Positions 1-52,029 of a stretch of 64,000 nucleotides of DNA are shown here, piece after piece. The stretch comes from Vicinamibacterales bacterium (GTDB lineage: Bacteria > Acidobacteriota > Vicinamibacteria > Vicinamibacterales > UBA8438), in contig OY762226.1 of the NCBI GenBank assembly GCA_963665465.1, forward strand, positions 4,741,177 to 4,805,176. Direction: 5' to 3'. Position 1 is the stretch's first letter. Each line of letters starts with the position of its first letter. A program made the position numbers and the translations under genes. The notes under the pieces are model-generated. The model was given only the letters and a program-made list of their open reading frames with translations. It did no database searches and was not told the origin of the DNA.

Positions 1-2095
1 CGACCGGGTCGATCGTGCGGTGGCAGTTCGCACAGACGGGATTGCCGCGATGCGCGGCCAGGCGCTCCCGCATCGGGAGGTTGGCGGCGACGGCGTTTTC
101 CTCCAGCGCCGGCACGTTCGGCAGCGGCGGCGGCGGCGGGGCGCCGAGGATGTTCGAGAGCACCCACACCCCACGAATCACGGGCGACGTCCGCGTCGCG
201 TAGGACGTGACCGACAGGATGCTGCCATGCCGCAGCAGGCCGCCGCGCCGGCTGGCCGGGTCGAGCTCCACGCGCCGGAAGCGGGTGCCGTAGACGTTCG
301 GGATGCCGTAGTGCTTCGCCAGCCGTTCGTTGAGAAACGTGTAGTCGGCGCTCAGCAGGTCGAGCACGCCGCCGCCCTCCCGCAACACGCTGTCGAAGAA
401 GCGCTCCGTCTCCTCGCGGAACGCCTGCCGCAGGTTGTCGTCGAAGTCCGGGAAGAGGCGCGTGTTCGGGCTGAGCGAGACCAGATTCCGCAACTGCAGC
501 CATTGCCCGGCGAAGTTGCGGGCGAGATTGTACGAGCGCGGGTCGGCCAGCATCCGCCGCGTCTGCCGCTCGAGCTCGTCGGGCCGGCTCAGCTCGCCGC
601 GCTCCGCGGCCGCGAGCAGCTCGTCGTCCGGAATGCTGCTCCAGAGGAAGAACGAGAGGCGCGAGGCCAGCTCCAGGTCGCTGATGCGGTACGCGGCGCC
701 GGCAGCCGCCCGCTCGGGGTCGAGCTCCACGCGGAACAGGAACTCCGGGTTGATCAGCACCGCGGCGAGCGCGCGTTCGATGCCGTCGTCGAAGCTGCCC
801 GCGGCCCGCGCCTCGCGATAGAACGCCAGCGGCCCCTCGGTGTCGGCGGCGGAGACCGGCCGGCGGTAGGCGCGGCGCATCAGCGTCGCGAGAATCTCCT
901 CCGCGCAGGCCTCCTCCCGGTGCGGCTCGTCCGGCCGGCAGACGAAGAGGCGTCGGCGGCTCGGCGTGTCGGCCGCGCCCTGGGGCGAATAGGGGCCGGT
1001 GATGGTCACCTGGTAGACCGCAGGCGTCTGCCGCGGGTGGCGCTGCTCGTTGAAATGCGACTGGAGCGGCTGGCGCTCGGTTTCGATCAGCGAGCCGCCG
1101 TCCCTGGCGAACGTGACGCCGAGCTCGTGCGGGCCGGCGGTGACCGGCACGCGCACCTGCAGGTTGCGGTCCAGCAGCGTGTCGTCGCCGCCGGGCGGCC
1201 GGGCCACCGTGAAGCTCGCCACCACCGCGCGGTCGAGCAGCAGCTCGAGCTCGTGCGGCCGCGGGTCGCGCAGGCCCCCGATATTCCCGCTGCGATTGCG
1301 CGCCAGGCGCACCTGGATGTCGTACTCGCCGTCCTGTGCGAACGTATGCGAGACCAGCACGCCGCCGCGGGTGCCGATCGGCAGGCCGGGGACGTGCGCC
1401 TCCTGCGTCGTGTCGGGCGGGACGCGAATGACGGCGCTGTCGGCCGCCACGCGCCGCGCGCCGACCGCGAGGCGGCTGATGTTGCGCGCCGCGGAGATGT
1501 AGCGGTCGAGCAGGGCCGGGGGCAGATCGCCCACGGTGACGTTGTCGAAGCCGTGGCCGCTCTCGTCCGGCGGCAGCAGCGCCGCGGCGTCGATGTCGAG
1601 CGCCAGCAGGTCGCGGACGGCGTTCTGGTACTCGGTCCGGTTGAGGCGCCGCAGCGTCTCCGTGCGGCCCGGATTCGGATGGGCGTCCGCGGCGGCGTCG
1701 AGCGACGTCTCCAGCCACGCGAGAACCGCCCGGCGGTCCGCATCGGGCGGCTGCGGCCTGTTCGACGGCGGCATCGTGCCCGTGCGCAGCTTCTGCACCA
1801 CCTTCTCCCACACCGGGGCGTCCGCGGCGACGTGGGCGAGGTCGAGGGCTTCCAGGCTCAGGCCGGCGGTCTCGAGCCGCTGGCTGTGGCAGGTCAGGCA
1901 GTAGCGGTCCAGCAACCGGCGGCCGGCCGCCGCCGACGGGGTTGGCGCGGCAGCGACCGTCGCGGGCGACGCCTCGGCATGCGCCGCCGGCTGCTGCGCG
2001 GACGATGCGGCGGGCAGGCCGACGAGTACGGTCAGGGCCAAGCCCGCGCACACGACTCCAATCCTGAGGACGGACTCGTGCATCATCTGTTTCAT
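1..2095 (-). CDS. DUF1592/DUF1588/DUF1585-family exported protein with N-terminal c-type haem motif; the 3' end runs off the left edge
   Basis: Absent from the ORF track because it has no stop inside the window. My reverse-complement translation from the ATG at 2095 reads MKQMMHESVLRIGVVCAGLALTVLVG...RYCLTCHSQR...FLWSSIPDDELL...GNPVCANCHRTIDPV. It is collinear with the paralogs at 24866-27289 and 29340-31838. The + strand ORF 20-2689 over this region is its antisense shadow. Confidence 0.85.
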   Translation of the reverse strand, partial: MKQMMHESVLRIGVVCAGLALTVLVGLPAASSAQQPAAHAEASPATVAAAPTPSAAAGRRLLDRYCLTCHSQRLETAGLSLEALDLAHVAADAPVWEKVVQKLRTGTMPPSNRPQPPDADRRAVLAWLETSLDAAADAHPNPGRTETLRRLNRTEYQNAVRDLLALDIDAAALLPPDESGHGFDNVTVGDLPPALLDRYISAARNISRLAVGARRVAADSAVIRVPPDTTQEAHVPGLPIGTRGGVLVSHTFAQDGEYDIQVRLARNRSGNIGGLRDPRPHELELLLDRAVVASFTVARPPGGDDTLLDRNLQVRVPVTAGPHELGVTFARDGGSLIETERQPLQSHFNEQRHPRQTPAVYQVTITGPYSPQGAADTPSRRRLFVCRPDEPHREEACAEEILATLMRRAYRRPVSAADTEGPLAFYREARAAGSFDDGIERALAAVLINPEFLFRVELDPERAAAGAAYRISDLELASRLSFFLWSSIPDDELLAAAERGELSRPDELERQTRRMLADPRSYNLARNFAGQWLQLRNLVSLSPNTRLFPDFDDNLRQAFREETERFFDSVLREGGGVLDLLSADYTFLNERLAKHYGIPNVYGTRFRRVELDPASRRGGLLRHGSILSVTSYATRTSPVIRGVWVLSNILGAPPPPPLPNVPALEENAVAANLPMRERLAAHRGNPVCANCHRTIDPV

Positions 2096-2182
2096 CGGGC
2101 CATTGTAGGTTCCGGCCAGCCGGAATCCAAGACCGAAGTTGCCTATCCCGCGATCCGCTGCAGCGCTATAGTGGAGGCGGAC

Positions 2183-2689
2183 ATGTCCAGCTCCTACCAC
2201 GACTTCGAGACGCCTATCGGCATCCTGCGCCTGGTGGGCGACGAGCGACATCTCCGACGCGTCGACCTGCCCAACGCGGCGGCTCGTGCACCCGCTGCGG
2301 CGTGGCGCGAGAAACGCCGCGCGCTGCCCGGGCCGCTGGACGCGGCGAAACGCCAGCTCGCGGAGTACTTCGACGGGCTCCGCCGCGACTTCGATCTGCC
2401 GCTCGCTCCGGACGGCACGACGTTCCAGCGTCGAGTATGGGACGAGCTCCGCCGCATCTCGTACGGCGAAACCGTCTCTTACGGCGAGCTGGCGCGCCGC
2501 ATCGGCAAGCCGACGGCGTCACGGGCGGTGGGCGCGGCCAACGGCCGCAACCCGCTCGCCATCGTCGTGCCGTGCCACCGGGTGATCGGCGCCGACGGCA
2601 CCCTCACCGGCTACGGCGGCGGTCTGCCGGTCAAGCAGGCGCTCCTCGCCCTCGAACGCCGGGCGGCCCCGGCGCCAGCGTCTGCCTAG
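2183..2689 (+). CDS. ogt: methylated-DNA--protein-cysteine S-methyltransferase
   Basis: Only the last 168 aa of ORF 20-2689 look real. They start at the in-frame ATG at 2183 ([20 protein letters not shown]...). The active-site motif is [10 protein letters not shown], preceded by [25 protein letters not shown]. Confidence 0.9.
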
Positions 2690-3440
2690 ACTCGCCAGCC
2701 TGTTCGGTTCGGGACGGCTCCGTCAGGCGGGCGGCGAACCGGCGGTGTGCGTCCGCGTCGATGCCCGCCTGCAGCTCCCGGAGGGCGGCGGCGAGGTCGC
2801 CGTTCAGCAGCGCGGGGACGGTCAGGCGCAGGCCGGGGAAGACGCGGCTGTGGACGACGCCGGCGTCGTCGGCGGGCAGGGGGCGGTAGTCGCCGTCCGT
2901 CAGCTCGAACCAGTCGATGCACTGTTCCTGGGTGCGCCAGACGACGTACTCTTGCACTCCGTTGCGGCGGTAGGCGCGCAGCTTGTCGTGCAGGTCGATC
3001 GACGCGCTGCTGGCGGCGACTTCGACGACCAGCTCCGGCGCGCCTTCGAGGTAGTCGGCGGCACTCACGCGGGATCGCCCGCCCGCCTCGGGCGCGAGGC
3101 AGAGCAGCGCGTCGGGCTGCGGTTCGTTGTCGAGATCGAGGCGGAGGGTGGCGTTGTCGTAGCCGTGGACGCCGGGCGTTGACGCGGCGTACACGAGCAG
3201 CACGGTCTGAATCATCGCGTGCGGTCCCGCATGGGCCACGCTCACCGGCGACGGCATGTACACGACCCCCTCGATCAGTTGCGCCTTCTTCAGGTCGGGC
3301 CGCAGGGCGTAGCGGCGCTCGAACTCGTAGCGCGTGAGCCGGTCGCCGTTCTCCAGCGTCGGCGCGCGGAGGGCAGGGGCCCGCGGAGGCAAGAGGGTGT
3401 CGGGCGCGCCGGACCGTGACGTGACGTCGATCTCAGCCAT
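2631..3440 (-). CDS. Uma2-family (DUF820) endonuclease, copy 1
   Basis: ORF 2631-3479, trimmed to MAEIDV at 3440. Motifs: [10 protein letters not shown]...[15 protein letters not shown]...PQPDALLC...[34 protein letters not shown]. It converges on ogt with a 59-nt overlap. Confidence 0.75.
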
Positions 3441-3524
3441 GCCGGGTGATGCCTCCAGCCCGCAACTCCTAGGGTTCATGATGCCACACCCGTCGTCGCC
3501 CGCGGCTGCCGCATCCTATGCCCC

Positions 3525-5564
3525 CTATAGCGGCAGGCGGAAGGCGATGTACTCGCCCGAGTAGGTGCGTCCGCTGATGGCGAGCACGATGTACTGCCGC
3601 CCGTCCGCCAGGTAGGTCATCGGCGAGCCCGACTGCGGGGCCGGCATGAAGACCGCGCCGACCTCCCGGCCCGTCGCCTTGTCATAGGCCCGGAGCATGG
3701 CGCCCCGCCCGGCCTCCGTCCGGTGGTAGCCGCACTCGCCCATCACGACCAGCGTCCGGGTGACGAGCGGGCCGATCAGGTGGATGCACCGCTCGCCGGT
3801 GCGCGGAATCTCCAGGTCCCGCAGCGCGGGGTGATTTCGAACGCGGTCGGGCGTGTCGCCGTGCGGCGTCTGCCACAGGATGTCGCCGCGGTCGAGGTCG
3901 ATCGCGGACAGGCGCCCGTAGGGCGGCTTGACCAGCGGCAGCCCGCGCACGTTCAGGTCGCGCAGCCCGCCGTGGCCGACGCCGTACTTCGTCGTTCCCT
4001 TCACGTAGCGCATGTCCGAGACGTCCGGCCCGGGCGTCGGGATCAGCTCCCAGGAGTAGAACCCGGTCCGTGACGGGACGTACAGGATGTGGGTCTCGGG
4101 GTCGTAGCCGCCGCCGGGCCAGTTCGTGCCGCCGCTGCCGGCGCCCAGCCCGAGCGTGGCGATCGGACCGCCCTCGCGGCTGACAACCGGCGGCGTGAAG
4201 AGGGGCCCGAGCCGGTAGCGCGACACCAGCTCGACGGCCTCGGCGCGCAGCTCGGGCGTGAAGTCGATCAGGTCGTCGATGGATGCGCCCTGCCGGTCGT
4301 ACGCCGGCGGCCGGGTGGGGAACGGCTGGGTCGGGGAGTACCACTCGCCCGGCACGTCGCCCTGCGGCACCGGCCGCTCCTCGATCGGCCAGACGGGCTC
4401 GCCGGTGACCCGGTCGAAGACGTACAGGAACGCCTGCTTGCCGGGCTGCGCAACCGCCTTGATCGCCCGCCCGTCGACGGTGATGTCGGCCAGGATCGGG
4501 GGGCTGGCCATGTCGAAGCCCCAGATCGGGTGGTGCACGAGCTGGAAGTGCCACAGCCGCTCGCCGGTGAGCAGGTCGACCGCCACCAGGCTCTCGCCGA
4601 AGAGGTTGTCGCCCGGCCGGTGGCCGCCGTAGTAGTCGCCCGACGGCGTCTCGACCGGCAGATAGACGATGCCGAGGTCCGCATCGGCCGAGATCTGTGT
4701 CCAGACGCCGTTGTTGCCGTTGGTCCCCCACGAGTCGTTCAGCCAGGTGTCGGCGCCGAACTCGCCGGGGCGCGGGACGGTGTTGAAGACCCACAGGCGC
4801 CGGCCGGTGCGGATGTCGAACGCCTGCACCAGGCCCTTGGTGTTGTTGTGCGTCCGCGGCGCCGGGGCGTCGGCGAACGTGCCGCCCACGACGACGACGT
4901 CGCGCGCCACGGTGGGCGTGGCGTGCAGGCCTATCTCCCCGCTGACGAGGTCGATGGGGCGGCCGTCGCCCACGACGGCCGCCGCCTTGAGGTCGACGAT
5001 CCCGCCGTCGCCGAAGCCGGGGTCCCGCAGGCCGGTGGCGGCGTCGAGCGCCACGAGGCGGAACCCGAGCGTGACGTAGAGGATGCGGGCCTCCGTGCCG
5101 TTGGTCCAGTACGCCAGCCCGCGCCCCGACAGCAGGCGGGGCGCCTGCGCCGCCCGCTCGCCCTCGTGCTCGCTGTGCATCCACAGCAGCTCGCCGCTGG
5201 CGGCGTCCAGCGCCACGACCGCGCGCCGGGTGCCCGCGGTCGCGTAGAGCACCCCGCCGGCCATGATCGGCGTTCCCTCGAGCTTGAACTCCGGGGCCGG
5301 GCCGAGATTGTCGGTCTTGAAGCGCCAGGCGATCTCGAGCTCGCCGAAGTTCGACGCGTCGATCTGGTCCAGCGGCGAGTAGCGCGTGTGCCCGGCGTCG
5401 CCGCCGTAGCTGGGCCATTCGCCGGCCGTGGTGGTGAGCGGCCGCCACGCCTGGCCGGCCGCGTTCGCCGCCAGCAGACCGAAGCCGAGGGCGAGCACGA
5501 TCGCGCGCGGGGTCACGGGGCGCTCCCCGCAGGTCGGTAGCCAGTCTTGCATGGCCCGTATCAT
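3525..5564 (-). CDS. PQQ-dependent (quinoprotein) dehydrogenase, exported
   Basis: ORF 3525-5822, trimmed to MIRAMQDW at 5564. Signal-like AIVLALGFGLLAANAAG is followed by EWPSYGGDAGHTRYSPLDQIDASNFGELEIAWRF and repeated beta-propeller W/G motifs. Confidence 0.8.
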   Translation of the reverse strand: MIRAMQDWLPTCGERPVTPRAIVLALGFGLLAANAAGQAWRPLTTTAGEWPSYGGDAGHTRYSPLDQIDASNFGELEIAWRFKTDNLGPAPEFKLEGTPIMAGGVLYATAGTRRAVVALDAASGELLWMHSEHEGERAAQAPRLLSGRGLAYWTNGTEARILYVTLGFRLVALDAATGLRDPGFGDGGIVDLKAAAVVGDGRPIDLVSGEIGLHATPTVARDVVVVGGTFADAPAPRTHNNTKGLVQAFDIRTGRRLWVFNTVPRPGEFGADTWLNDSWGTNGNNGVWTQISADADLGIVYLPVETPSGDYYGGHRPGDNLFGESLVAVDLLTGERLWHFQLVHHPIWGFDMASPPILADITVDGRAIKAVAQPGKQAFLYVFDRVTGEPVWPIEERPVPQGDVPGEWYSPTQPFPTRPPAYDRQGASIDDLIDFTPELRAEAVELVSRYRLGPLFTPPVVSREGGPIATLGLGAGSGGTNWPGGGYDPETHILYVPSRTGFYSWELIPTPGPDVSDMRYVKGTTKYGVGHGGLRDLNVRGLPLVKPPYGRLSAIDLDRGDILWQTPHGDTPDRVRNHPALRDLEIPRTGERCIHLIGPLVTRTLVVMGECGYHRTEAGRGAMLRAYDKATGREVGAVFMPAPQSGSPMTYLADGRQYIVLAISGRTYSGEYIAFRLPL

Positions 5565-5634
5565 AGCGCCGCGCCCGCCGCGTCCGCCGCCGGGCTCGAG
5601 GGCGACGCCGGGGCTGTATACTGCCGGCAGACCG

Positions 5635-7377
5635 GTGCGAACCCTCCCCGCGGGCGTGCTGCTCGTCGCCGGATGGCTGGTGTTCGGCGTTGCGTCCGCC
5701 GCTGCCGGCGGCGGTGCGCCGCAGCCCCCGGCAGGGCTGGTCACGCCCCCCGCACAGTTCGTCCCCGACGTCACCGAGTCCGAGGCCGCTCTGGAAGCGG
5801 TGCAACGGAGCCTCGACGACACCCTGGTCGCCGGCCTGCGGACGTTCGACTGGGCGACGGCGGCCGGCGGGCTGTCCGACGGGTTCCGCGGCCGCTTTCC
5901 GGCGCCGGACGCCGGGCGCGTCGTCGCGGACGGCCGCCTCGCCGTTCGCCGCTACGCGCCGGCTGCCTCGCAGCCGCTGGACCGCGAGGCGTTCCTGGCG
6001 GTGCTGCGCCGCCACACCGCCGGCTGGACCGCCGTCGAGCGCGCCTCGTGGCACGCCTTCGAGTTCCTGCTGGAGCCGGCGCGCGACCGGGCGTTCGTCA
6101 AGGCGCACCTGCAGCTCGGCGGACCGGATCCGGCCGGCGCGCGGTCGGTGCTCGACGCCACGGTGCACGCCGGCGTGAGCGAGGTGGCCCCCGGCCGCTG
6201 GCGTCTCGAGCGGCTCGACGTCGTCGAGGCGACGGTGGTCCGCAGCCCGCATCCGCCGTTCCGGGAGATCACCGATGCCACCGGGTTCCATTTCAACCGC
6301 TCGGAGGCCAACCGCGAGCTGCGGCAGGCGATCGTGGACACGCGCTCGAGCCTCGTCGATTCCGGGCTGGCCGTGGTCGACTGGAACGGCGACGGGTTCT
6401 GGGACCTGCTGGCGACCGAGTCGATGAACCAGGGGGTGCTGTTCCTCAACGACGGCCGGGGCGGCTTCGTGCGCGCGGCGCTGCCCTACGACGACCCGCG
6501 GCTGATTCCCTCGCAGGCCCTCTTCGTCGACCTCGACGGCGACGGTCTGGAGGAACTGGTCGGCAACCGGGTGCTCTACAGCGCGGGGCGCGGCTCGATC
6601 GGCCTGCACACGCGCCGCGACGGCCGCTGGCAGTTTCTCCCCGACGCGCTCGAGTTCGACAATCCGTCGGGCGCGCAGCGCGCGGATGCCCAGCCGCTGA
6701 CCGCCGGCGACGTGAACGGCGACGGGCTGATCGACATCGTGGTGGCCGGCTACGAGACCGACCGGTCGCGCGATCCGGAACGCTTCAACCGGGTGGACGC
6801 GCGGGACGGCGCGGACACCCTGCTGTTCATCAACCGCGGCAATCTGCGGTTCACGGAGGAATCGGACGCGCGCGGCATATCCGGCACGCGCTACACCTAC
6901 GCCGCGCACCTCTTCGACTTCGACGGCGACGGCGACCTCGACCTCTTCGAGGGCAACGACTACGGCGCCAACGAGCTGTGGGACAACCAGGGCGGCGCGT
7001 TCCGCGCGCTGACGGATCATCCGCTCGCCGGCGACGCCGCCAACACGATGGGCATTGCGGTCGCCGACTGGGACAACAGCGGCCGCTGGAGCCTGCACCT
7101 CTCGAACATGTACTCGCACGCCGGGCAGCGCGTAGTTCGTCTGGCGCAGGGTCTCGCCGGCGCCATGCGGGAGCGCCTGGGACGACTCGCCGCCGGCAAC
7201 CAGCTCTTCGTCCAGGGGCCGGACGGCTGGGACGACCGGGCCGCGGCGCTGGGCGTGAGCGACGCGGGCTGGGCCTGGGCGTCGCTGTTCTACGACCTCG
7301 ACAACGACGGCGACCAGGAGCTGTTCGTCACCAACGGGAACACGAGTCACCGCGACCCCGCGGCGCCCGACTACTGA
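5635..7377 (+). CDS. FG-GAP/VCBS-repeat protein; N-terminal part of a longer frame that is interrupted by TGA 7375-7377
   Basis: ORF 5428-7377. Repeats include DWNGDGFWDLL, DLDGDGLEELV, GDVNGDGLIDIVV, FDFDGDGDLDLF and YDLDNDGDQELFV. The start is uncertain: GTG 5635 precedes the hydrophobic segment VRTLPAGVLLVAGWLVFGVASAAA, while ATG 5551 would overlap the divergent PQQ gene. Confidence 0.75.
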   Translation: MRTLPAGVLLVAGWLVFGVASAAAGGGAPQPPAGLVTPPAQFVPDVTESEAALEAVQRSLDDTLVAGLRTFDWATAAGGLSDGFRGRFPAPDAGRVVADGRLAVRRYAPAASQPLDREAFLAVLRRHTAGWTAVERASWHAFEFLLEPARDRAFVKAHLQLGGPDPAGARSVLDATVHAGVSEVAPGRWRLERLDVVEATVVRSPHPPFREITDATGFHFNRSEANRELRQAIVDTRSSLVDSGLAVVDWNGDGFWDLLATESMNQGVLFLNDGRGGFVRAALPYDDPRLIPSQALFVDLDGDGLEELVGNRVLYSAGRGSIGLHTRRDGRWQFLPDALEFDNPSGAQRADAQPLTAGDVNGDGLIDIVVAGYETDRSRDPERFNRVDARDGADTLLFINRGNLRFTEESDARGISGTRYTYAAHLFDFDGDGDLDLFEGNDYGANELWDNQGGAFRALTDHPLAGDAANTMGIAVADWDNSGRWSLHLSNMYSHAGQRVVRLAQGLAGAMRERLGRLAAGNQLFVQGPDGWDDRAAALGVSDAGWAWASLFYDLDNDGDQELFVTNGNTSHRDPAAPDY

Positions 7378-9003
7378 CCGTTCTTCTGGCGACAGGTTGT
7401 CGCCGACGCCGAAGCGATCGAACGGGCATCGCCGTTCGCGCCGGTGGCGGTCGGGGAGCGGCGTGCGTTCCGCGGCTCGTTCAGCGGCTACGAGCGCGAC
7501 CGGCTCTTCTACAACGCGGGCGGGGCGCTGGTCGGGAGCGCGTACGTCTTCGGGCTCGACGGCGACCACGACGGCCGCGCCGCCGCGCCGGTGGACGTCG
7601 ACGGCGACGGCGACCTCGATCTCGCGCTGCTGACCCTGCGCGGCCTGCGGCTGTTCGAGAACACGTCGGACGAGCACGCGCGGCCGGAGACCCGCCGCTA
7701 CGCGCGCGTGCGGCTGGCGGCCACGCGCTCGGCAGCTCCCGCCCTGGGCGCCGTGGTGACGCTGGAGGCGGGCGGCGCCACCCGCCGCGACTACGTGCGG
7801 ATCACCGAAGGTTTCCAGACGCAGGTGCCGCTCGATCTGCACTTCGGCCTGGGCGCCGCCGGGCGTGTCGAGCGCCTCACGGTCGCGTGGCCGTCGGGCG
7901 CCCGCGAGACGTGGAGCGACCTGCCCGCGGACCGGCTGCTGCGCGTGGTGGAGGGCCGCCCGGAGGTGGGGGTCGACGTGCTGCCGCGTTGGCCGGAGGG
8001 CACGCGGCCCAGGCCGGTCGGCCCGCCGTCGACCGCGGTGGACCTGCCGCGGCTGGGGGGCGGCGCCGGGCCGCTGACGTCCGGCGGACGGCCCGCGGTG
8101 GTCAACTTCTGGGCCCCCTGGTGCGCGCCGTGCAACGTGGAGCTGCCGCAGCTCGTGGCGCTGGCGGGACGCTACGGGGGCCGCGTCGACTTCGCCGGCG
8201 TCAGCGTGGAAGTGGACGATCTGGACTCGGTCCGCGGCATGGTCCGCGACCTGGGCGTGCCGTATCCGCAGTTCCTCGCCGACGCACCGGTGATGGAGCG
8301 CTTTTTCGGCGGCGCCGACGCGGCGGCGCTCCCCTCGACGTACGTGTTCGACGCCCGGGGCCGCCTGCGGCGCCAATTCCGGGGTCCGATCACCGAGGCC
8401 GACCTCGACGCGCTGCTGCAGTCGCTGCGCGACGAGGGCCTGTTCGAGGCGGACCTCGAGCTGGCGGCCCGGTCGGCGGCCCGGGCGGGCGACCTCGAGC
8501 AGGCCATCGCGCACTACCGCCGGCTCGCCGCGCGCCGGCCGGGGAGCGCGCAGCCGCTCTACCGCATCGGCGTGGCGGCGCTGGCGCTGGGCGACGTGGA
8601 GCAGGCCCGCGACGCGCTGGAGCAGGCGGTCAGCCGCGCGCCGGCCCACCCGCTGGCGCAGTTCCACCTCGGTCTGGCGCGGCTGCGCTCGGGGCAGCCG
8701 GGGCAGGGGTTCGCCAGCCTGCAGGCGTCGCTGGCGCTGGCCGGACGGGACCCGGCCGCGTTGACGAGCCTGGGCAGCGCGGCGGCGGCGGCGGGGCAGC
8801 TGTGGCTCGCGGTCGACGCGCTGTCGCTGGCGGTGGAGGCGGATCCCGCCTCGTCGTCCGCCTGGCTGGGCAAGGCGCGCGCGCACCGTGCCCGGCGGGA
8901 GCTCGACCGCGCGGCGGCCGCCTACCAGCAGGCGCTGGCGCTCGAGCCGGAGAACGCGGCGGCCCGGCGCGAGCTGAGCGGCCTGACTTCCGACCAGCGG
9001 TAG
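7378..9003 (+). CDS. Same-frame continuation: ASPIC/UnbV-like region, TlpA/ResA-like thioredoxin domain and TPR repeats
   Basis: The ORF track starts at GTG 7444, but the frame is open from 7378 and is the same frame as 5428-7377. The region right after the TGA reads PFFWRQVVADAE. Further motifs: VDVDGDGDLDLAL, VTLEAGGATRRDYV...WPSG, the redox motif VVNFWAPWCAPCNVELPQL, then TPR-like helices. Confidence 0.75.
   Translation, partial: PFFWRQVVADAEAIERASPFAPVAVGERRAFRGSFSGYERDRLFYNAGGALVGSAYVFGLDGDHDGRAAAPVDVDGDGDLDLALLTLRGLRLFENTSDEHARPETRRYARVRLAATRSAAPALGAVVTLEAGGATRRDYVRITEGFQTQVPLDLHFGLGAAGRVERLTVAWPSGARETWSDLPADRLLRVVEGRPEVGVDVLPRWPEGTRPRPVGPPSTAVDLPRLGGGAGPLTSGGRPAVVNFWAPWCAPCNVELPQLVALAGRYGGRVDFAGVSVEVDDLDSVRGMVRDLGVPYPQFLADAPVMERFFGGADAAALPSTYVFDARGRLRRQFRGPITEADLDALLQSLRDEGLFEADLELAARSAARAGDLEQAIAHYRRLAARRPGSAQPLYRIGVAALALGDVEQARDALEQAVSRAPAHPLAQFHLGLARLRSGQPGQGFASLQASLALAGRDPAALTSLGSAAAAAGQLWLAVDALSLAVEADPASSSAWLGKARAHRARRELDRAAAAYQQALALEPENAAARRELSGLTSDQR
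7388..7404 (+). promoter_or_regulatory. 17-nt hairpin 10 nt 3' of the in-frame TGA (SECIS-like candidate)
   Basis: GGCGACA-GGT-TGTCGCC forms a perfect 7-bp stem with a 3-nt loop. The context is TGA CCGTTCTTCT followed by the hairpin. Confidence 0.45.
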
Positions 9004-27484: not shown

Positions 27485-27541
27485 AAGCGCCGGGATGTAG
27501 AATAGGTCAGCCGCCGAGCAGGCACGCATGAGGGGGAAACG

Positions 27542-29293
27542 ATGAGGGCACGTCACATCTCGATAGGCTGCGGCGCGTGGATTCCGGTGCTGGTTGTCGC
27601 CCTGGCAGCGATTGCCGGGCTGCCGGCGGCCGTGTCCGCCCAGGGCACCGGGACGATCTCGGGCATCGTGACCGTCGACGACGGCGAGGTCCAGGCGTTC
27701 CGGGTCAAGGCGCGCGACACCGTGGGGCGGATCGCCTACACGGTCTACACGGTCGAGGGGCGCTACCGGATCTACAACCTGCCGTCGGGGACGTACGAGG
27801 TGCAGGTGATCGAGCCGGGGTTCGAGCCGCTGGTCAGGACGGTGCAGGTGGCGGCTTTCGAGACCGCGACGGCCAACCTGGCGTTGAGGTCGACCGGGCC
27901 GCTGGCCGCGCAGGGCGCCGGCGGCGCGGAGGCGCGGGCGAACTACGGCGGGCGGCAGGTCAACGCCGACGGCGCGGAGCTGGTGGACTTCGACGAGCTG
28001 TATCCCCCGCACCCGGCGCGGGACGTCATGCTGCGGTCGTGCTTCGGGTGCCACGGGCCCGCGGCCTTTCACAACCGGGGCGTGAAGAACGAGGCGGGGT
28101 GGCGGCGGGCCGTCAACCGCATGTTCGACGTGGACGGTCGGGTGGCCAACATGGCGCCGGGCGTGCCCCAGATCACCCATGAGACGGTGTCGGAAGAGGA
28201 GATGGAGCTGATCATCAGCTACCTGACCGACAACTTCGGGCCCGACTCGGTGCAGCGCGACCTGCTGCTCGACCCGCTGGTGCGCGACGAGACGCAGCTG
28301 GCCGAGGCCGTCTACGTGCAGTACGAGCTGAACCGCGGGCCCCGCAAGGAGGTGCGCGGCCGCCCGCCGACCTGGTCGATCCACAGCGTGTTCGCGAGCC
28401 AGGTCCAGCCGGGCGTGATCTGGGTGTCGGGCAACGGGTCGAACTCGATCATCCGGGTCGACACGCGGGTGCGCGACTTCGAGGCGCGGACGACGGAGTA
28501 CTGGATCGACAACCCGGCGAACATCAACGTGACGCCGCACGGCATCATCGAGCTCGACGGCACCGTCTACTGGGTGGAGCTGACGGGCGACCACCTGGGC
28601 GAGCTGGATCCGGCGACCGGCGAGATCACACGGCACCGGATGCCGGTGAGCGGCGGCGGCCCGCACAGCTGCTGGGCCGACTCGCGGGGCTACATCTGGT
28701 ACACCTACTTCGCCTCGGCGGGGAAGATCGGCCGGTTCGACACGCGGACCAAGGAGTTCGAGGAGTGGGAGCCGCTGTCGGGCTTCAGCGGCTACGGGAT
28801 CGTGGTCGACCGGCAGGACCGGGTGTGGGCCGTGGGGCTGCACACGCCCGCGACGCTGATGTTCAACCAGGAGACCCAGGAGTGGACGGAGTACCCGATG
28901 GCGAACCCGGCGCGGCGCCCCGCCATCGACAGCAACGGCAAGATCTGGGCAGCCCACTACTACGGGAACGCCATCACGAAGATCGACCCGGTGACCGACG
29001 AGGTGACGGAGTACACGCTGCCGCTCAAGGACGGCAACCCGTACGACGTCTGGCCGGACGCGGACGACAACCTGTGGGTCGAGAACATGATCTACAACTC
29101 GCTGGTCAAGTTCGATCAGGCGACCAGCGAGTTCACCTACTTCCCGTTTCCCGAGCTGCAGGCGCACACGCCGAAGCTCGACACCGATCGGTCGGGCGTG
29201 CTGTGGTTCACGCTCGGCAACCCGTCCGGTCCGGGCATCGCCGCGCTCAAGCCGCACGGCAACGTCCGGGGCGGATTTCCGGTGGCGCAGTAG
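27542..29293 (+). CDS. Exported carboxypeptidase-regulatory-like domain + CxxCH haem motif + beta-propeller (virginiamycin-B-lyase-like repeats)
   Basis: GTISGIVTVDDGEVQAFRVKARD...GRYRIYNLPSGTYEVQV, then SCFGCHGP, then repeated W/Y-rich blades (GYIWYTY, DRVWAVG, GKIWAAHY, DNLWVEN, GVLWFT). Confidence 0.7.
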   Translation: MRARHISIGCGAWIPVLVVALAAIAGLPAAVSAQGTGTISGIVTVDDGEVQAFRVKARDTVGRIAYTVYTVEGRYRIYNLPSGTYEVQVIEPGFEPLVRTVQVAAFETATANLALRSTGPLAAQGAGGAEARANYGGRQVNADGAELVDFDELYPPHPARDVMLRSCFGCHGPAAFHNRGVKNEAGWRRAVNRMFDVDGRVANMAPGVPQITHETVSEEEMELIISYLTDNFGPDSVQRDLLLDPLVRDETQLAEAVYVQYELNRGPRKEVRGRPPTWSIHSVFASQVQPGVIWVSGNGSNSIIRVDTRVRDFEARTTEYWIDNPANINVTPHGIIELDGTVYWVELTGDHLGELDPATGEITRHRMPVSGGGPHSCWADSRGYIWYTYFASAGKIGRFDTRTKEFEEWEPLSGFSGYGIVVDRQDRVWAVGLHTPATLMFNQETQEWTEYPMANPARRPAIDSNGKIWAAHYYGNAITKIDPVTDEVTEYTLPLKDGNPYDVWPDADDNLWVENMIYNSLVKFDQATSEFTYFPFPELQAHTPKLDTDRSGVLWFTLGNPSGPGIAALKPHGNVRGGFPVAQ

Positions 29294-29339
29294 CCCTGCC
29301 GCGGGCGCCCGACGCGGCGCCTGACGGGTGCGGAAGAGC

Positions 29340-31838
29340 ATGAGCAGGGTCGTCATCGGCGGCTGCGGGCTGGTGCTGGCCGGCGTCTGGGCGCTCGGTC
29401 TGCCGGCCCCCGTTTCGGCGGCGCCGCGCGCCCCCGTCGGGCAGGGGCGCGCGGCGGCCGAGTCGTCCGCGGCCGCCCCGCAGGCCCTGCTGAACCGGTA
29501 CTGCCTCACCTGCCACAACGAGCGGCTGAACACCGGCGGGCTGGCGCTCGACCGCCTCGACCCGGCCGACGTGGGCGCGGCGCCCGCACGCTGGGAAGCG
29601 GTCGTCGAGAAGCTGCGCGCGGGCATGATGCCGCCCCCGGGGCGGCCCCGGCCCGCGCCGGCCGAGGCCGAGCGCCTCCGCCGCTGGCTGGAGGCGGCGC
29701 TCGACCGCGCGGCCGCCGCCAGCCCCGAGCCGGGCCGCGTGCCGACCCACCGCCTGAATCGCGCCGAGTACGCCAACGCCGTCCGCGATCTGCTCGCCCT
29801 CGAGGTGGACGGCGGCGCGCTCCTGCCGGCGGACGTCGCCGGCCACGGGTTCGACAACCTGGCCGGAACGCTCACGCTGTCGCCGTCGCTCATGGAGCGC
29901 TACCTGTCGGCGGCCCGCCGCATCAGCCGCCTGGCCGTCGGCGATCCCGGCATCGGGCCCGGCTTCACGTCGCGTGCCTACGCGGTGCCGATCGACATGA
30001 CCCAGAACGAGCGCATGAGCGAGGATCTGCCGTTCGGGTCGCGGGCCGGCATCGCCGTCCGGCATCGTTTTCCGCTCGACGGCGACTACGACCTCAGGAT
30101 CCGGCTCAAGCGCAGCGTCTACGAGTACATCGTCAACCTCGAGGAGGCGCACGATCTCGAGGTGCGTCTCGACGGCACGCGGGTGGCCCTCTACACGATT
30201 GGCGGCGAGGCGCCCGGCAGGCCCGCCCCGCTGACCTTCTCGGGCACGTTCATGGCGGCGGGCGGCGCCGGCTATCCCACGCAGGACTGGGACGACTACT
30301 ACACCGGGGCCGACGCGGGTCTCGAGCTGCGCGTCCCGGTGAGGGCCGGCACGCGGCTGGTCGGCGTTGCCTTCATCGGCAAGTCGTGGGAGGAGGAGGG
30401 CGTCCTCCAGCCCTCGCTGCGCGAGTACGGCGCGACGGTGACCGAGCTCACCGACACGTCCCCGCGGCCCGAGGGACCGGGGATCGAGAGCGTGTCGATC
30501 GACGGGCCGTACAACGTGACCGGTGCCGGCGACACCGCCAGCCGCGAGCGCATCTTCACCTGCCGCCCGCCGGCCGGCGACGCGGCGGCGGAGGCCGGTT
30601 GCGCGCGGACGATCTTCTCGACGCTGACGCGGCGCGCCTACCGGCGGCCGGTGACGGCGGACGACCTCGCGCCGCTGATGCCGTTCTACGACGCCGCGCA
30701 CGCGGCGGGCGGCTTCGAGGCCGGCATCCGGGCCGGGCTCGAACGCATCCTGATCGACCCCGAGTTCCTGTTCCGCATCGAGCGCGATCCCGAGGACGCG
30801 GCGTCCGGCGGCATCTATCGGCTCGGCGGCCTCGAGCTGGCCTCCCGCCTGTCGTTCTTCCTGTGGAGCAGCATTCCGGACGACGAGCTGCTGGCGCTGG
30901 CCGCGCGCGGCGCGCTCGACGATCCCGGCGTCCTCGAGCGCCAGGTGCGCCGGATGCTGGCCGACCGCCGCGCGCGGGCGCTCGTCGACAACTTCGCCGG
31001 TCAGTGGCTCGCCATCCGCAACGTGCAGGGGCTGGTGCCCGACCCCAATCTCTTCCCGCACTTCGACGAGAACCTCCGCGAGGCCTTCCGGCAGGAGACC
31101 GAGCTGTTCGTCGAGAGCCAGCTGCGCGAGGACCGCAGCGTCGTCGAGCTGTTGACGGCCGACTACACGTTCCTGAACGAGCGGCTGGCGCGGCACTACG
31201 GCATCCCCGGCGTGCACGGCAACCGCTACCGCCGGGTGCGCCTGACCGACGAGCGGCGCGGCGGGCTGCTGGGGCACGGCAGCGTCCTGTCGGTCACTTC
31301 CTACGGCAACCGCACGTCGCCGGTCCTGCGCGCCAAGTGGGTGCTCGAGAACCTGCTGGGTACGCCGCCGCCGCCGCCGCCCGCCGACGTGCCGGGTCTG
31401 CCCGACAGCGGCGAGCACGGCGAGCCGCAGACGGTCAGGGAGCGTCTGGCCCAGCACCGGCGCAACCCGGTCTGCGCGAGCTGCCATGCGCCGATGGACC
31501 CCCTCGGATTCGCGCTCGAGAACTTCGACGCGGTGGGGGGGTGGCGCACCCACGACGCGGGGCTGCCGGTCGACGCGTCCGGGGTCCTGACCGACGGCAC
31601 GCGCTTCGACGGGCCAGCGGAGCTGCGCGCGGCGTTGGCCGCGCGCCGGGAGCAGTTCGTCGAGACGCTCACCGAAAAGCTGCTGACGTACGCGCTGGGC
31701 CGGGGGCTCGAGGCGTACGACCGTCCGGTGGTGCGGGCGATCGCCCGCGAGTCCGCCGCCGACGACTACCGCTGGTCGGCCATCGTTCTGGGCATCGTCC
31801 GCAGCACGCCGTTCCAGATGCGGAGGTCCGAGTCATGA
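29340..31838 (+). CDS. DUF1592-family protein with c-type haem motif (triad 2)
   Basis: ORF 29328-31838; ATG at 29340. Motifs: RYCLTCHNER, ILIDPEFLFRIE, FFLWSSIPDDELL, RNPVCASCHAPMDPLGFALENFD. Confidence 0.85.
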   Translation: MSRVVIGGCGLVLAGVWALGLPAPVSAAPRAPVGQGRAAAESSAAAPQALLNRYCLTCHNERLNTGGLALDRLDPADVGAAPARWEAVVEKLRAGMMPPPGRPRPAPAEAERLRRWLEAALDRAAAASPEPGRVPTHRLNRAEYANAVRDLLALEVDGGALLPADVAGHGFDNLAGTLTLSPSLMERYLSAARRISRLAVGDPGIGPGFTSRAYAVPIDMTQNERMSEDLPFGSRAGIAVRHRFPLDGDYDLRIRLKRSVYEYIVNLEEAHDLEVRLDGTRVALYTIGGEAPGRPAPLTFSGTFMAAGGAGYPTQDWDDYYTGADAGLELRVPVRAGTRLVGVAFIGKSWEEEGVLQPSLREYGATVTELTDTSPRPEGPGIESVSIDGPYNVTGAGDTASRERIFTCRPPAGDAAAEAGCARTIFSTLTRRAYRRPVTADDLAPLMPFYDAAHAAGGFEAGIRAGLERILIDPEFLFRIERDPEDAASGGIYRLGGLELASRLSFFLWSSIPDDELLALAARGALDDPGVLERQVRRMLADRRARALVDNFAGQWLAIRNVQGLVPDPNLFPHFDENLREAFRQETELFVESQLREDRSVVELLTADYTFLNERLARHYGIPGVHGNRYRRVRLTDERRGGLLGHGSVLSVTSYGNRTSPVLRAKWVLENLLGTPPPPPPADVPGLPDSGEHGEPQTVRERLAQHRRNPVCASCHAPMDPLGFALENFDAVGGWRTHDAGLPVDASGVLTDGTRFDGPAELRAALAARREQFVETLTEKLLTYALGRGLEAYDRPVVRAIARESAADDYRWSAIVLGIVRSTPFQMRRSES

Positions 31839-33184
31839 TTGTCACCCGCAAGGCTCTCCCGCGGCGCACGGTGCTGCGCGGCATCGGCGCGGCGGTGGCG
31901 CTGCCGCTCCTCGACGGCATGGTGCCGGCGCTCACGGCGCTGACGCGCACGGCCGCGCGGCCCATCCAGCGGTTCGGCGTGGTCTACATCCCGAACGGCG
32001 TGGTCATCGACAACTGGACGCCGGCGGCCGACGGGGCCGGCTTCGAGTTCACGCCGACGCTCAGGCCGCTGGAGCCGTTTCGCGAGCGGCTGCTCGTCGT
32101 GAGCGGCCTGACCCAGAACAAGAACGGGCTCGCCGCCAGGAGCGGCGCGGTGCACGGCCGCTGCGCGACCAAGTACCTGACGGGAGCCATTCCCCGGCCG
32201 TTCGGCCAGGAGGGCAACGATTTCCGCGCGGACGTCTCGGTCGACCAGCTCCTGGCGAACGAGCTCGGCCGCGAGACGCAGCTCGGCTCGCTCGAGCTGT
32301 CGCTGGAGTCGGGCGACAAGGGGGCCGGGACGTGCGACGGCGGCTACAGCTGCACCTACAGCCACACGTTGTCCTGGCGCGGCCCGACCACGCCGCTGCC
32401 GATGGAGCACAATCCGCGGGTCGTCTTCGAGCGCATGTTCGGCGACGGCGGCAGCACCGATCCCGCCGCCCGGGCGGCGCGCTTCGCGAGCGACCGCAGC
32501 CTGCTCGACTCGGTCACCCGCAAGGTCGCCGATCTGCGCCGCGGCCTCGGCCCCAGCGATGCCGGCAAGCTCACCGAGTACCTGGATGCCGTGCGCGACA
32601 TAGAGCGCCGCATCCAGCTCGCCGAGCGGCAGGCGGGCCGCGAGCTGCCCGCGTTCGACCAGCCCGCCGGCGTGCCGCCCACGTTCGCCGATCACGCGCG
32701 CCTGATGTTCGACCTGCAGGTGCTCGCGTACCAGAGCGATCTGACGCGCGTCATCACCTTCATGGTCGGCCGCGAGTTCAGCAGCCGCACGTACCCGGAG
32801 ATCGGGGCGCCGGGCGGGCACCATCCGCTGTCGCACGAGCACAGCCCCGAGAGCCAGCGGCAGCTCGCCGCCATCAACCTGCACCACGCCGAGCAGGTGG
32901 CCTACTACCTCGACCGGCTGCAAGCGACGCCCGACGGCGACGGCACGCTGCTGGATCACGTGCTGCTCTACTACGGCGCGGGCATGTGCGAGGGCGACCA
33001 CCAGCCCTGGAACCTGCCCCTGGTGCTGGCGGGCGGCGGGGCCGGCCGGTTCGGGGGCGGACGGCACCTGCGCTATCCGGACGAGCCGCCGCTGGCGAAC
33101 CTGCACCTGACCATCCTCGAGAAGTTCGGCATGCGCATGGACCGGATCCATGACAGCACGGGGCGCCTCGACCTGGCCGCGTAG
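31835..33184 (+). CDS. DUF1552-family protein with Tat-type signal (triad 2)
   Basis: Real part of ORF 30386-33184. MIVTRKALPRRTVLRGIGAAVALPLLDGM...GTCDGGYSCTYSHTLSW...LTRVITFMVGRE. Its start overlaps the upstream stop (ATGA). Confidence 0.85.
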   Translation: MIVTRKALPRRTVLRGIGAAVALPLLDGMVPALTALTRTAARPIQRFGVVYIPNGVVIDNWTPAADGAGFEFTPTLRPLEPFRERLLVVSGLTQNKNGLAARSGAVHGRCATKYLTGAIPRPFGQEGNDFRADVSVDQLLANELGRETQLGSLELSLESGDKGAGTCDGGYSCTYSHTLSWRGPTTPLPMEHNPRVVFERMFGDGGSTDPAARAARFASDRSLLDSVTRKVADLRRGLGPSDAGKLTEYLDAVRDIERRIQLAERQAGRELPAFDQPAGVPPTFADHARLMFDLQVLAYQSDLTRVITFMVGREFSSRTYPEIGAPGGHHPLSHEHSPESQRQLAAINLHHAEQVAYYLDRLQATPDGDGTLLDHVLLYYGAGMCEGDHQPWNLPLVLAGGGAGRFGGGRHLRYPDEPPLANLHLTILEKFGMRMDRIHDSTGRLDLAA

Positions 33185-35117
33185 CCACGGCTGGAAGCTG
33201 TCCGGCCGCTGCCGCGTCGGGCTGCTGGCGCTCGCGATGGCGGTCGCAGCGGCAGCCGCGGCGGGCGGCCAGGCCGGGTCCCCGCAGCGGCTGGTCGACG
33301 CCGTGAAGGCGCGCGACGCGGCGGCCGTGCGCGCGCTGCTGGCCGCCGGCGCCGACGTGAACGAGCCGCAGGCCGACGGCGCGACCGCGCTCCACTGGGC
33401 GGCCCACTGGGAGGACCTCGACACCGCCCGGCTGCTGCTCGCGGCGGGGGCCGAGGCCGGTGTCGCGAACGGGCTGGGGATGACCCCGCTGCTCATGGCC
33501 GGCGCCAACGGCCAGGCCGGGCTGGTGGAGGCGCTGCTGGCCGCCGGCGCCGATCCCGATGCTGCGCTCACGAGCGGCGAGACCCCGCTCATGGCGGCCT
33601 CGCGGGCCGGCAGCGCCGCGGCGGTCGAGAGCCTGCTGCGGCGCGGCGCCGACGCGAACGCCACGGAGCACACGCGCGGGCAGTCGGCGTTGATGTGGGC
33701 CGTCGCCAACGGCCACCCCGGCGTCGCGGCGGCGCTGATCGCGCACGGGGCCGACATCCGGGCCAGGTCCGAGGTCCGCTACCGCGTCTACAACATGGGC
33801 GGCAACCGGTCCGCCGGCTCGGCCTCGGCCGGGATTCCGTTGCGGCGGATCGCCATCGGCGGCAGCACGCCGCTGCTCTTCGCGGCCCGCTCGGGCGACG
33901 TCGAGTCGGCCCGGCTGCTGCTCGACGCCGGCGCCGATCTGCACGACCCCGCGGCCGACGGCAACGTCCCGCTGGTGATTGCCGCACACAGCGGGCACGG
34001 AACGCTCGCCGCGTTCCTGCTCGAGCGCGGCGCCGACCCCGACGCCGCGCCCCTGGGCTACACCGCGCTGCACGCCGCGGTGCTGCGCGGCAACCTGCGC
34101 GACCGCCGCGTGCGCAACCCCGATCCGGGGGCCGGCCTGACGCTGGTCGAGGAGCTGCTGGCGCACGGCGCCGATCCGAACGCGAGGCTCGCGCAGCCGA
34201 CGCCGGTCAGGCGCTGGAGCCACGACTTCGCCCTGATGAACCGCTGGCTCGGGGCCACCCCGTACTGGCTGGCCGCCAAGTTCCTCGAAACCGACATGAT
34301 GCGGGCGCTGGCGGCTGCCGGCGCCGACACCCGGCTGGCCAGCGACGACGGCACGACGCCGCTGATGGCGGCCGCCGGCCTGGGCTACAGCCGCGGCGGC
34401 GGCAGCGCGTTCATCAAGGACCGGCGCGACTTCTCGTCGTACAACCCGGTCGCGTCGGCCGAGCAGGGGTCGCGCATCCCGGCGGCCGAAGAGCGGCTTG
34501 CCCGCGACGCCGTCGCGCTGGCCATCGAGCTGGGCGGCGATCCGGCCGCGGCCAACGCGGGGGGCGACACGGCGCTGCATGCCGCCGCGTCCCACGGCAT
34601 GAACAGCGTGATCGAGCTGCTGGTCGAGCACGGCGCCGACCCGCACGCCGCGAACGAGCGGGGCCGGACGCCGGTCGAGATGGCCGTCTACCGCGAGGGC
34701 ATCGCCGGCGCCGCCCTGGTCCGGGAGAGCACGGTCGGCCTGCTCCGCGAGCTGGACCCGGACCGGCATCCGGCCGGGCCGCACGAGCATCCGGATGCGC
34801 AATCGATCGCGAACCCGGTGCAGGGCACGCCGGCATCGCTGGCCGCGGGCGCCGCCGCCTACGACCGCCTGTGCGCCACCTGCCACGGACCGACGGGGCG
34901 GGGCGACGGCCGGCTGGCCAGCGCCGCGGCCGCGTACGGCGCGCGGCCGTCGAACCTGGCCGACGGCGTCTGGCAGCACGGGTCGAGCGACGGCGAGATC
35001 TTCGCCGTGATCCGCGACGGCGTCGGCCCCGATTTCGCCATGGACGCCTTCGGCGGACCGCTCGCCGACGAGGAGATCTGGCACGTCGTCAACTACGTGA
35101 AGAGCCTGGGTCGGTAG
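33150..35117 (+). CDS. Exported ankyrin-repeat protein with a C-terminal cytochrome c domain (triad 2)
   Basis: Ankyrin repeats as in 21995-23506, plus the C-terminal GAAAYDRLCATCHGPTGRGDG...EIWHVVNYVKSL. The start is uncertain: ATG 33150 overlaps DUF1552 by 35 nt, and ATG 33237 is the alternative. Confidence 0.75.
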   Translation: MTARGASTWPRSHGWKLSGRCRVGLLALAMAVAAAAAAGGQAGSPQRLVDAVKARDAAAVRALLAAGADVNEPQADGATALHWAAHWEDLDTARLLLAAGAEAGVANGLGMTPLLMAGANGQAGLVEALLAAGADPDAALTSGETPLMAASRAGSAAAVESLLRRGADANATEHTRGQSALMWAVANGHPGVAAALIAHGADIRARSEVRYRVYNMGGNRSAGSASAGIPLRRIAIGGSTPLLFAARSGDVESARLLLDAGADLHDPAADGNVPLVIAAHSGHGTLAAFLLERGADPDAAPLGYTALHAAVLRGNLRDRRVRNPDPGAGLTLVEELLAHGADPNARLAQPTPVRRWSHDFALMNRWLGATPYWLAAKFLETDMMRALAAAGADTRLASDDGTTPLMAAAGLGYSRGGGSAFIKDRRDFSSYNPVASAEQGSRIPAAEERLARDAVALAIELGGDPAAANAGGDTALHAAASHGMNSVIELLVEHGADPHAANERGRTPVEMAVYREGIAGAALVRESTVGLLRELDPDRHPAGPHEHPDAQSIANPVQGTPASLAAGAAAYDRLCATCHGPTGRGDGRLASAAAAYGARPSNLADGVWQHGSSDGEIFAVIRDGVGPDFAMDAFGGPLADEEIWHVVNYVKSLGR

Positions 35118-51718: not shown

Positions 51719-51784
51719 CGGACAAGAGCTCCTTCCCGTTACCGAACCTGCGAATCGTAGACCACCGGCGTCCAGTGACGCCAG

Positions 51785-51925: not shown

Positions 51926-52029
51926 TGCTGGCCGGATAGTGTGCCGAGTCAACCGCGGTTCGCTCGAGAAGGACGTGATCATCGTGCCGTCGAACCGCAG
52001 CCAGGCCTGGCACGTACACGCCGCGGCCG

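Follow-up and report, generated by a model that had tools for sequence, protein, structure and literature searches.

We describe here a gene in a stretch of 64,000 nucleotides from a Vicinamibacterales bacterium (contig OY762226.1, positions 4,741,177 to 4,805,176; this whole stretch is referred to below as the window, and positions are given in its coordinates) that is interrupted by an in-frame TGA at 7375-7377. Comparison with homologous sequences indicates that this codon is very probably read as selenocysteine (Sec) and, with similarly high probability, that the same recoded site is common to the Acidobacteriota, Planctomycetota and Verrucomicrobiota. We propose that 5635-9003 is one gene whose product is an exported selenoprotein with a mass of about 120 kDa. 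Only if the UGA is read through do the FG-GAP/VCBS repeats and the UnbV_ASPIC domain that comes after them, both scoring above their Pfam cut-offs, fall within one chain.

Two open reading frames (ORFs), 5428-7377 and 7444-9003, share one forward frame, and the TGA is the only stop between them, as a preliminary description of the window had noticed; in translation its flanks read ...NGNTSHRDPAAPDY-*-PFFWRQVVADAEAIERASP... The start that we favour is a GTG (Table 1), with ATG 5551-5553 as an alternative, and the hydrophobic N-terminus that begins at the GTG (MRTLPAGVLLVAGWLVFGVASAAA) is predicted to direct export of the product. GC at third codon positions is similar on the two sides of the TGA, at 0.92 before and 0.95 after. 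Gene callers halt at the UGA, and databases therefore store the two halves separately, as 'VCBS repeat' and 'ASPIC/UnbV' proteins. An identical split, into 609 and 519 aa, is present in a 99%-identical contig of 6.09 Mb from a second assembly (ERZ25069711 ctg17365), and the TGA is thus not a read error.

Conservation of the TGA and of the sequence beyond it

Among the best 120 matches (56-99% identity) that the fused sequence gave in a protein search, 117 stop exactly at the column occupied by the TGA, at ...PD(Y/F/L). Of the other three, two continue through it as full-length proteins that have D or Q in its place, and the third is frameshifted. The DNA of 94 related loci was also collected from genome and metagenome collections and aligned across the column with tblastn. 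TGA is the codon in 82 of the 89 alignments that cross the column, and TAA or TAG in none. This preference and the shared end point of the 117 proteins are far beyond chance. The carriers are found in the Vicinamibacterales, Bryobacterales and Holophagales, in many Planctomycetota and in many Verrucomicrobiota, and those in the window's own clade, the Vicinamibacterales, include loci at 87% (L001) and 80% (L005) identity. At their true ends the same genes use TGA (26), TAG (24) or TAA (10; 60 genes in all), showing that UGA is a working stop in the carrier organisms.

These data dispose of the simplest a priori account of one in-frame stop, which is a single-base change. The preliminary description had named a TGG-to-TGA nonsense mutation, or a fresh pseudogene, as an alternative to Sec, and had noted that homologues with Trp at the column would speak for it; the comparison refutes the suggestion, since none of about 80 relatives with a sense codon at the column has Trp there, and other residues and one Cys occur instead. 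The same TGA is present in the second assembly of a near-identical genome and in the 82 alignments from three phyla, and purifying selection continues downstream of it. A pseudogene or nonsense allele, for which a lineage-restricted stop and relaxed downstream constraint would be expected, was accordingly rejected as a candidate, the stop being shared by three phyla and the downstream sequence constrained. A TGA that is conserved in three phyla, in organisms where UGA is still a stop, therefore excludes for all practical purposes a pseudogene, a sequencing error and a genome-wide reassignment of UGA, and we regard this group of explanations as extremely improbable.

Directly 3' of the TGA comes the stretch that is best conserved in this part of the gene, (S/T/P)F(F/Y)WRQVV. 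Its W, R and V are invariant (alignment A5), in agreement with the remark in the preliminary description that PFFWRQVV resembles a conserved segment of FG-GAP/ASPIC-type proteins. Codon +1 encodes Ser in all 62 distant relatives, as AGT, AGC or TCG, and the Phe/Tyr codons that follow the TGA vary synonymously in the same sequences; in 13 close relatives there is synonymous variation at codons +3, +5, +9, +10 and +11. The region 3' of the TGA is, judging from these substitutions, under purifying selection, and the 66 nt that follow the stop do read as protein, as had been supposed, their amino acids being conserved through synonymous codon changes. Homologues with a sense codon at the column are single chains of 980-1258 residues, of which P0108, P0117 and P0506 are full-length examples with a sense codon or Cys. 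P0358 was considered as a junction-spanning protein and set aside as an internal-deletion variant in which the site is absent.

The sequence beyond the TGA also bears on whether the locus might hold two genes, perhaps translationally coupled, with a secreted FG-GAP protein ending at the TGA and an ASPIC-thioredoxin-TPR protein starting at GTG 7444 (or, in other phyla, at a GTG within the hairpin described below). Although every annotation pipeline calls the locus in this way, the called starts differ among relatives, and no conserved start for the second half was found among them. Val/GTG is indeed common eight residues before FRGSFSG, and codon +8 is GTG in 50 of the 62 distant relatives, but in the window's clade all 13 of the 13 sequences have GTC there, and nowhere in the region is conservation, as amino acids, higher than in the codons that separate the TGA from any such start. 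No signal peptide was found in the second half, despite its exported-type redox domain with WAPWCAPC, a discrepancy that the preliminary description had already pointed out; no promoter-like or terminator-like site was found between the halves; the sense-codon and Cys homologues are single chains; and the propeller and ASPIC parts map onto one chain of CRTAC1 in a structure model with a pTM of 0.90 (see below). The preliminary description had allowed that relatives might encode two separate conserved genes. With no conserved start, and with the residues after the TGA the best conserved, this is not what the relatives show, and an arrangement of two genes is very improbable.

The hairpin, the column residue and the case for selenocysteine

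A hairpin at 7388-7404, which the preliminary description had likened to a selenocysteine insertion sequence (SECIS), is located as described there and is contained in the minimum-energy fold; it spans 17-19 nt and starts 10-11 nt after the UGA, and its 8-bp form has -10.8 kcal/mol. In the window's clade it has 7 bp and a GGU loop, and in the distant relatives it takes the form GCGACA-GGUCG-UGUCGC, with 6 bp in 17 nt, and starts 11 nt after the UGA. Of 81 sites, 60 have 17 nt between the UGA and the loop. Criteria for bacterial SECIS elements are a loop of 3-9 nt with G in its opening two positions, a stem of 4-16 bp, a distance of 16-37 nt from the UGA and a minimum free energy of -7.5 kcal/mol or below (PMC13188914), and with 8 bp, a GGU loop, 17 nt and -10.8 kcal/mol the window hairpin lies within these ranges. 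When perfect stems alone are allowed, the energy cut-off is passed by 46 of the 81 sites; the commonest G-U variant (21 listed sites) is at -7.3. An Rfam scan of the window gave no match.

Covariation was scored for the named 6-bp helix on the 62 distant relatives, with 500 shuffles and a slid 3' arm as controls. The cells of this helix are paired in 96% of cases. Pair 27-37 is GU in 28 sequences, AU in 19, GC in 6, CG in 3, and UA and UG in one each; pair 29-35 is AU in 56 and GC in 4. The covariation score is reached by none of the 500 shuffles, and sliding the 3' arm reduces pairing to 68% or less. Compensatory changes in the stem alter amino acids, with CGA-UCG giving Ser, CGG-CCG Pro, CGC-GCG Ala and CGU-ACG Thr. 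Of 50 Ser codons within the stem, 48 are TCG; a Ser two codons on is TCA (12), TCG (10), TCT (8), TCC (7) or AGT (5). In divergent subfamilies with different peptides (DDL-U-LPFVSGAVAQ, DL-U-AAFNSGAV and U-SCLWR) the TGA column persists, and so does a stem bearing a GGUC loop. Covariation, codon choice and independence from the peptide together argue that the hairpin is kept by selection on RNA, and on these sequence grounds it fits a bacterial SECIS element.

The minimal element of Escherichia coli fdhF is a stem-loop of 17 nt that has a GGUC loop and lies 11 nt from the UGA. The present gene resembles such SelB/SECIS genes in having an in-frame UGA, about 11 nt and then a short stem-loop whose loop begins GG-U, and its spacing, loop and stem fit the consensus (PMC13188914). 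It differs from them in belonging to another protein family and in an element that has neither the bulged U nor a conserved lower helix, and binding of SelB would here be predicted from the RNA.

At the column itself, the residue in sense-codon relatives is Q, D, E, S, N, A, G, M, I or R, and in a single instance Cys. This homologue, P0506 (DNA L100; metagenome contig ERZ27274783 k133_1489322, gene 205-3759), has TGC at the column, an intact hairpin, GCGCCA-GGUCG-UGGCGC, and the same architecture, including WASWCEPC. A perfect hairpin in a Cys form suggests a recent switch between Sec and Cys, and a classical Cys/Sec pair exists in the family, but is rare. Of the 65 TGA-form genes with enough downstream sequence, 63 have a CxxC motif 242-299 residues after the TGA; the motif is absent from all 20 Q/D/N/E relatives of the window's clade, as well as from L045 and L096-L099. 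The association between Sec and CxxC is thus strong, not absolute; a strict rule was ruled out by six sense-codon relatives with CxxC.

Several groups within the family have features of their own. Cys adjoins Sec in some subfamilies, as U-S-C (L079:90 and L079:5312), U-P-C (L040:2215) or DC-U (L036:4874), which are typical redox selenoprotein motifs. TGA-form genes of a Verrucomicrobiota subgroup with GWxLKDDL-U-S(V/F)FWRQVVSPS (L034 and L073, also L026 and L062) have a C-terminal part of about 416 aa with UnbV_ASPIC and without CxxC or a Pfam thioredoxin domain, and depart in this from the pairing of Sec with CxxC. Tandem paralogues with different column residues are found at L105, where the gene 1001-4798, a Glu (GAG) paralogue with the full hairpin and CxxC, stands directly after the ASPIC-thioredoxin-TPR half of another member (partial gene 1-964). 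L051 has two TGA-form copies, and L079 has three family copies, two with TGA at the column and a third that aligns only downstream. The long-read metagenome contigs L096-L099 (ERZ250394xx, ERZ25039546) contain many fragmented genes, for example OMP_b-brl_4 in 3-4 pieces, which suggests assembly frameshift errors; the short 'proteins' P0121-P0160 from these contigs are fragments.

The window contains a second gene with an in-frame TGA (44867-44869), at 44636-45703 on the forward strand. It encodes a signal-peptide-bearing AhpC-TSA/Redoxin protein with AVW-U-PYC, a UxxC motif, and carries the hairpin GCAGCUC-GUG-GAGCUGC, of 7 bp with a GUG loop, at 44884-44900. This gene, which gene callers would likewise split, belongs to a selenoprotein family that has long been known, the Prx-like thiol:disulfide oxidoreductases with UxxC (PMC13188914, Table 1), and as a canonical UxxC gene in the same window it gives indirect support for the use of Sec by the organism. 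Kim et al. (2016) listed the same ASPIC/FG-GAP candidates in two Planctomycetes that have selA, selB, selC and selD, and listed no candidates for a third genome without genetic evidence of Sec use (PMC4807772). The suggestion in the preliminary description of one FG-GAP/ASPIC-thioredoxin-TPR protein of about 1122 codons with Sec is thus supported by the conservation of the TGA, translation through it, covariation of the hairpin, the Cys homologue and the second selenoprotein gene.

A conserved TGA with a hairpin beyond it might instead serve programmed read-through without Sec, or act as a regulatory stop. The hairpin would then slow the ribosome, and whether the full-length protein or a propeller of 580 residues is made would depend on a near-cognate tRNA (Trp, Cys or Arg) or on a release factor. 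The truncated product would in any event arise from inefficient UGA decoding, and with many residues tolerated at the column in the sense-codon relatives its chemical identity might not matter. However, the only stop codon at the column is TGA, in the 82 alignments, with no TAA or TAG, and the GGUC(G)/GGU loop at a fixed 17 nt corresponds to the SelB-type SECIS model and is retained when the peptide changes. The TGC homologue, the CU and UxC variants (L036, L079, L040) and the canonical UxxC gene in the same window point in the same direction, as does the co-occurrence of the family with complete Sec machinery in two Planctomycetes (PMC4807772). Read-through of this kind gains from the negative search for Sec machinery in the window and beside related loci, considered next, yet we judge it improbable.

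The reading of the TGA as Sec has itself to be set against a number of results that weigh on the other side. No selA, selB, selD or tRNA-Sec was found within the 64-kb window (by a tRNA scan and by Pfam on 20 further ORFs), and no Sec machinery or tRNA-Sec beside the 60 related loci. Chance hairpins in GC-rich sense-codon relatives also satisfy the generic SECIS criteria, which therefore do not discriminate. No conserved lower SECIS helix was found between the codons after the UGA and the sequence downstream (2.99 paired nt, compared with 2.91 in shuffled tails), and RNAalifold on a 57-column alignment did not return the hairpin, giving only a 3-bp alternative. Sense-codon relatives retain two to five of the six pairs because WRQVV is conserved as protein, and one Glu paralogue retains all six. 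For a catalytic Sec it is unusual that Cys was found in just one of the roughly 80 relatives with a sense codon. CxxC is retained in the six sense-codon relatives noted above, which have S, E, A or I at the column, and is lacking in two TGA forms. Finally, no conserved gene neighbourhood was found around the homologues, where genes for PQQ dehydrogenase, PSCyt/PSD and Vgb_lyase-like proteins recur only loosely, so that the proposed function gains no support from context.

Architecture and proposed function

The features of the locus are collected in Table 1. The order of the parts is constant across phyla, running from the signal peptide through an unnamed alpha/beta domain, the FG-GAP propeller, Sec, a last FG-GAP blade, UnbV_ASPIC and an AhpC-TSA/Redoxin domain with (A/S)xWCxPC to the TPR repeats.

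Table 1. Coordinates of the recoded gene and its parts in the window
Feature	Position	Strand	Basis
Complete recoded coding sequence (proposed)	5635..9003	+	1122 codons; GTG start 5635-5637, probable Sec codon at 7375, TAG stop 9001-9003
Predicted N-terminal signal peptide or membrane anchor (MRTLPAGVLLVAGWLVFGVASAAAGGG)	5635..5715	+	Read from the sequence; homologues have an equivalent hydrophobic N-terminus
N-terminal alpha/beta domain, no Pfam or NCBIfam family	5716..6249	+	Approximate boundaries; conserved among family members (alignment A2); confident model in the Cys homologue
FG-GAP/VCBS beta-propeller blades, ending one residue before Sec	6250..7374	+	Pfam FG-GAP_3 1.9e-26 in four stretches, and FG-GAP; model of the homologue matches CRTAC1 9etn
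UGA, very probably read as Sec	7375..7377	+	TGA in 82 of 89 homologous alignments; TGC in one homologue
66 nt untranslated by gene callers, encoding PFFWRQVVADAEAIERASPFAP, a predicted helix starting at Sec	7378..7443	+	Amino acids kept with synonymous changes in 13 close and 62 distant relatives
Putative SECIS hairpin GGCGACA-GGU-UGUCGCC	7388..7404	+	UGA-to-loop distance 17 nt; minimum-energy fold; covariation in 62 distant relatives
Last FG-GAP_3 repeat, 3' of Sec	7489..7626	+	Pfam 6.6e-4, under the cut-off for the window protein; relatives share the same repeat
UnbV_ASPIC domain	7741..7941	+	Pfam 5.1e-18, 65 bits (cut-off 23.4)
TlpA/ResA-like thioredoxin-fold domain	8086..8418	+	Pfam AhpC-TSA (39.9 bits) and Redoxin (35.8), each over its cut-off
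C-terminal TPR repeats	8464..8976	+	Several Pfam TPR families; fold matches to TPR proteins

The WAPWCAPC motif of the thioredoxin-fold domain is encoded at 8110-8133, with its Cys codons at 8122-8124 and 8131-8133, and apart from Sec and these two Cys the mature window protein has no other Cys. The NCBIfam scores of this domain are under the cut-offs for ResA (42.5 against 170 bits), DsbE (41.6 against 123) and TlpA (41.7 against 230), and the domain is thus related to these families and not a member of them. No NCBIfam model matched the N-terminal half.

An AlphaFold model was built for the Cys homologue P0506, not for the window protein, from 34 full-length sequences, and has a mean pLDDT of 87.7 together with the pTM given above. 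In this model the column residue, Cys644, is the first of a helix (644-654) that comes straight after a strand (639-642) in the propeller region, and the CxxC (917-920) stands at the start of a helix (918-929) after a strand (908-913). The best Foldseek match is murine CRTAC1 (9etn_A; E = 1.3e-22, TM(target) 0.74); the thioredoxin domain matches ResA and TlpA structures, and the tail matches TPR proteins. Because the model matches CRTAC1, a single chain, the propeller and ASPIC unit, including the Sec site, is predicted to be one fold. A sequence search of the PDB with a profile of the junction matched CRTAC1 in the repeats only.

With the UGA read as Sec, SelB carrying Sec-tRNA(Sec) would bind the hairpin and position the Sec-tRNA at the UGA, 10-11 nt upstream, as the features of the RNA and their conservation suggest; where insertion failed, the product would be truncated at 580 residues. 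The selenolate at the N-terminus of a helix would form a redox-active site outside the cytoplasm and could react with peroxide, a disulfide or another oxidant to give a selenenic acid or selenenyl-sulfide. The fused TlpA-like CxxC domain of the same protein might then resolve the oxidized Sec, and a membrane thiol-reductant pathway could re-reduce the CxxC domain, as it does for TlpA and ResA, while the TPR part may recruit partners. An extracytoplasmic redox Sec resolved by the protein's own CxxC is the function that this anatomy suggests, and we would give it about an even chance of being correct. A broader proposal, whose chances fall a little short of that, is that these proteins make up an uncatalogued class of extracytoplasmic selenoenzymes, large and abundant in the environment. 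In this class Sec would have arisen at a site that is mostly non-Cys in relatives, on a CRTAC1-like propeller and not on a thioredoxin fold, with an intramolecular relay to the fused TlpA-like CxxC.

Neighbouring genes and relation to known proteins

The selenoprotein gene is divergent from a PQQ-dependent dehydrogenase gene at 3525-5516 on the reverse strand, and PQQ genes also flank one homologue (L103, 9671-11766). Vgb_lyase/CarboxypepD_reg genes (27506-29293 in the window) recur near homologues in L101 and L103, a loose association. Two multidomain PSCyt/PSD ('planctomycete cytochrome') genes and a fusion of ankyrin repeats with cytochrome c occupy 2-2518 (reverse strand), 29325-31838 and 33111-35117 (both forward strand); the 'planctomycete cytochrome' genes here sit in a genome of the Acidobacteriota. 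Between about 48000 and 52000 the GC content is 0.62-0.65, against about 0.72 elsewhere, and this segment, which includes an ORF with HSDR_N (type I restriction R-subunit N-terminal-like) at 50591-52078 on the reverse strand, may be a horizontally acquired island.

The family is related to several known systems, and differs from each. It shares FG-GAP repeats and UnbV_ASPIC with the CRTAC1/ASPIC-UnbV propellers (9etn), with a fold match through the model of the Cys homologue, but CRTAC1 has no Sec, thioredoxin domain or TPR, and the (S)FFWRQVV segment is not alignable to it by sequence. With the TlpA/ResA/DsbE oxidoreductases it shares a WCxxC thioredoxin fold in a protein with an export signal; in the window protein, by contrast, this domain is fused to a propeller and TPR repeats, and the Sec lies 245-300 residues upstream, in another domain. 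Selenoproteins with thioredoxin folds are known, among them the UxxC thiol:disulfide interchange protein and a UGC-containing TlpA family, whereas the motif of the window protein keeps two Cys.

A 2026 review that describes its inventory as the most comprehensive one (PMC13188914) contains 119 families of prokaryotic selenoproteins, and no FG-GAP, VCBS, ASPIC or CRTAC1 family is among them; two other recent resources make no mention of the family. The only earlier trace of the family that we found in the literature is as a candidate in a supplementary table of 2016 (Kim et al., 2016; PMC4807772, Table S9). Those candidates, from Planctomycetes, belong to the same family and have the same split into two annotated genes; three of the four were positive in bSECISearch, and the closest sense-codon match was Gly, not Cys. 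The earlier report is a line of that table only, and differs from the present one in having no conservation, covariation, Cys homologue or CxxC link and no Acidobacteriota or Verrucomicrobiota. Selenoprotein prediction pipelines depend on Cys/Sec pairs (PMC13188914), and the family has been overlooked because Cys homologues are very rare here.

In summary, the mechanism of recoding is ordinary, and extends a well-known phenomenon, but the family is a new and unusual one among bacterial selenoproteins. With the UGA read as Sec, two truncated annotations in the Acidobacteriota, Planctomycetota and Verrucomicrobiota become one multidomain protein again, and the family is likely to be a further major sink for selenium in these phyla. 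The combination of a Sec on a CRTAC1-like propeller with a built-in thioredoxin domain provides a testable redox hypothesis for a family that is expanded in soil and marine bacteria, and if the broader proposal of a selenoenzyme class is true, this would be the first catalytic function for the enigmatic bacterial ASPIC/CRTAC1-like proteins.

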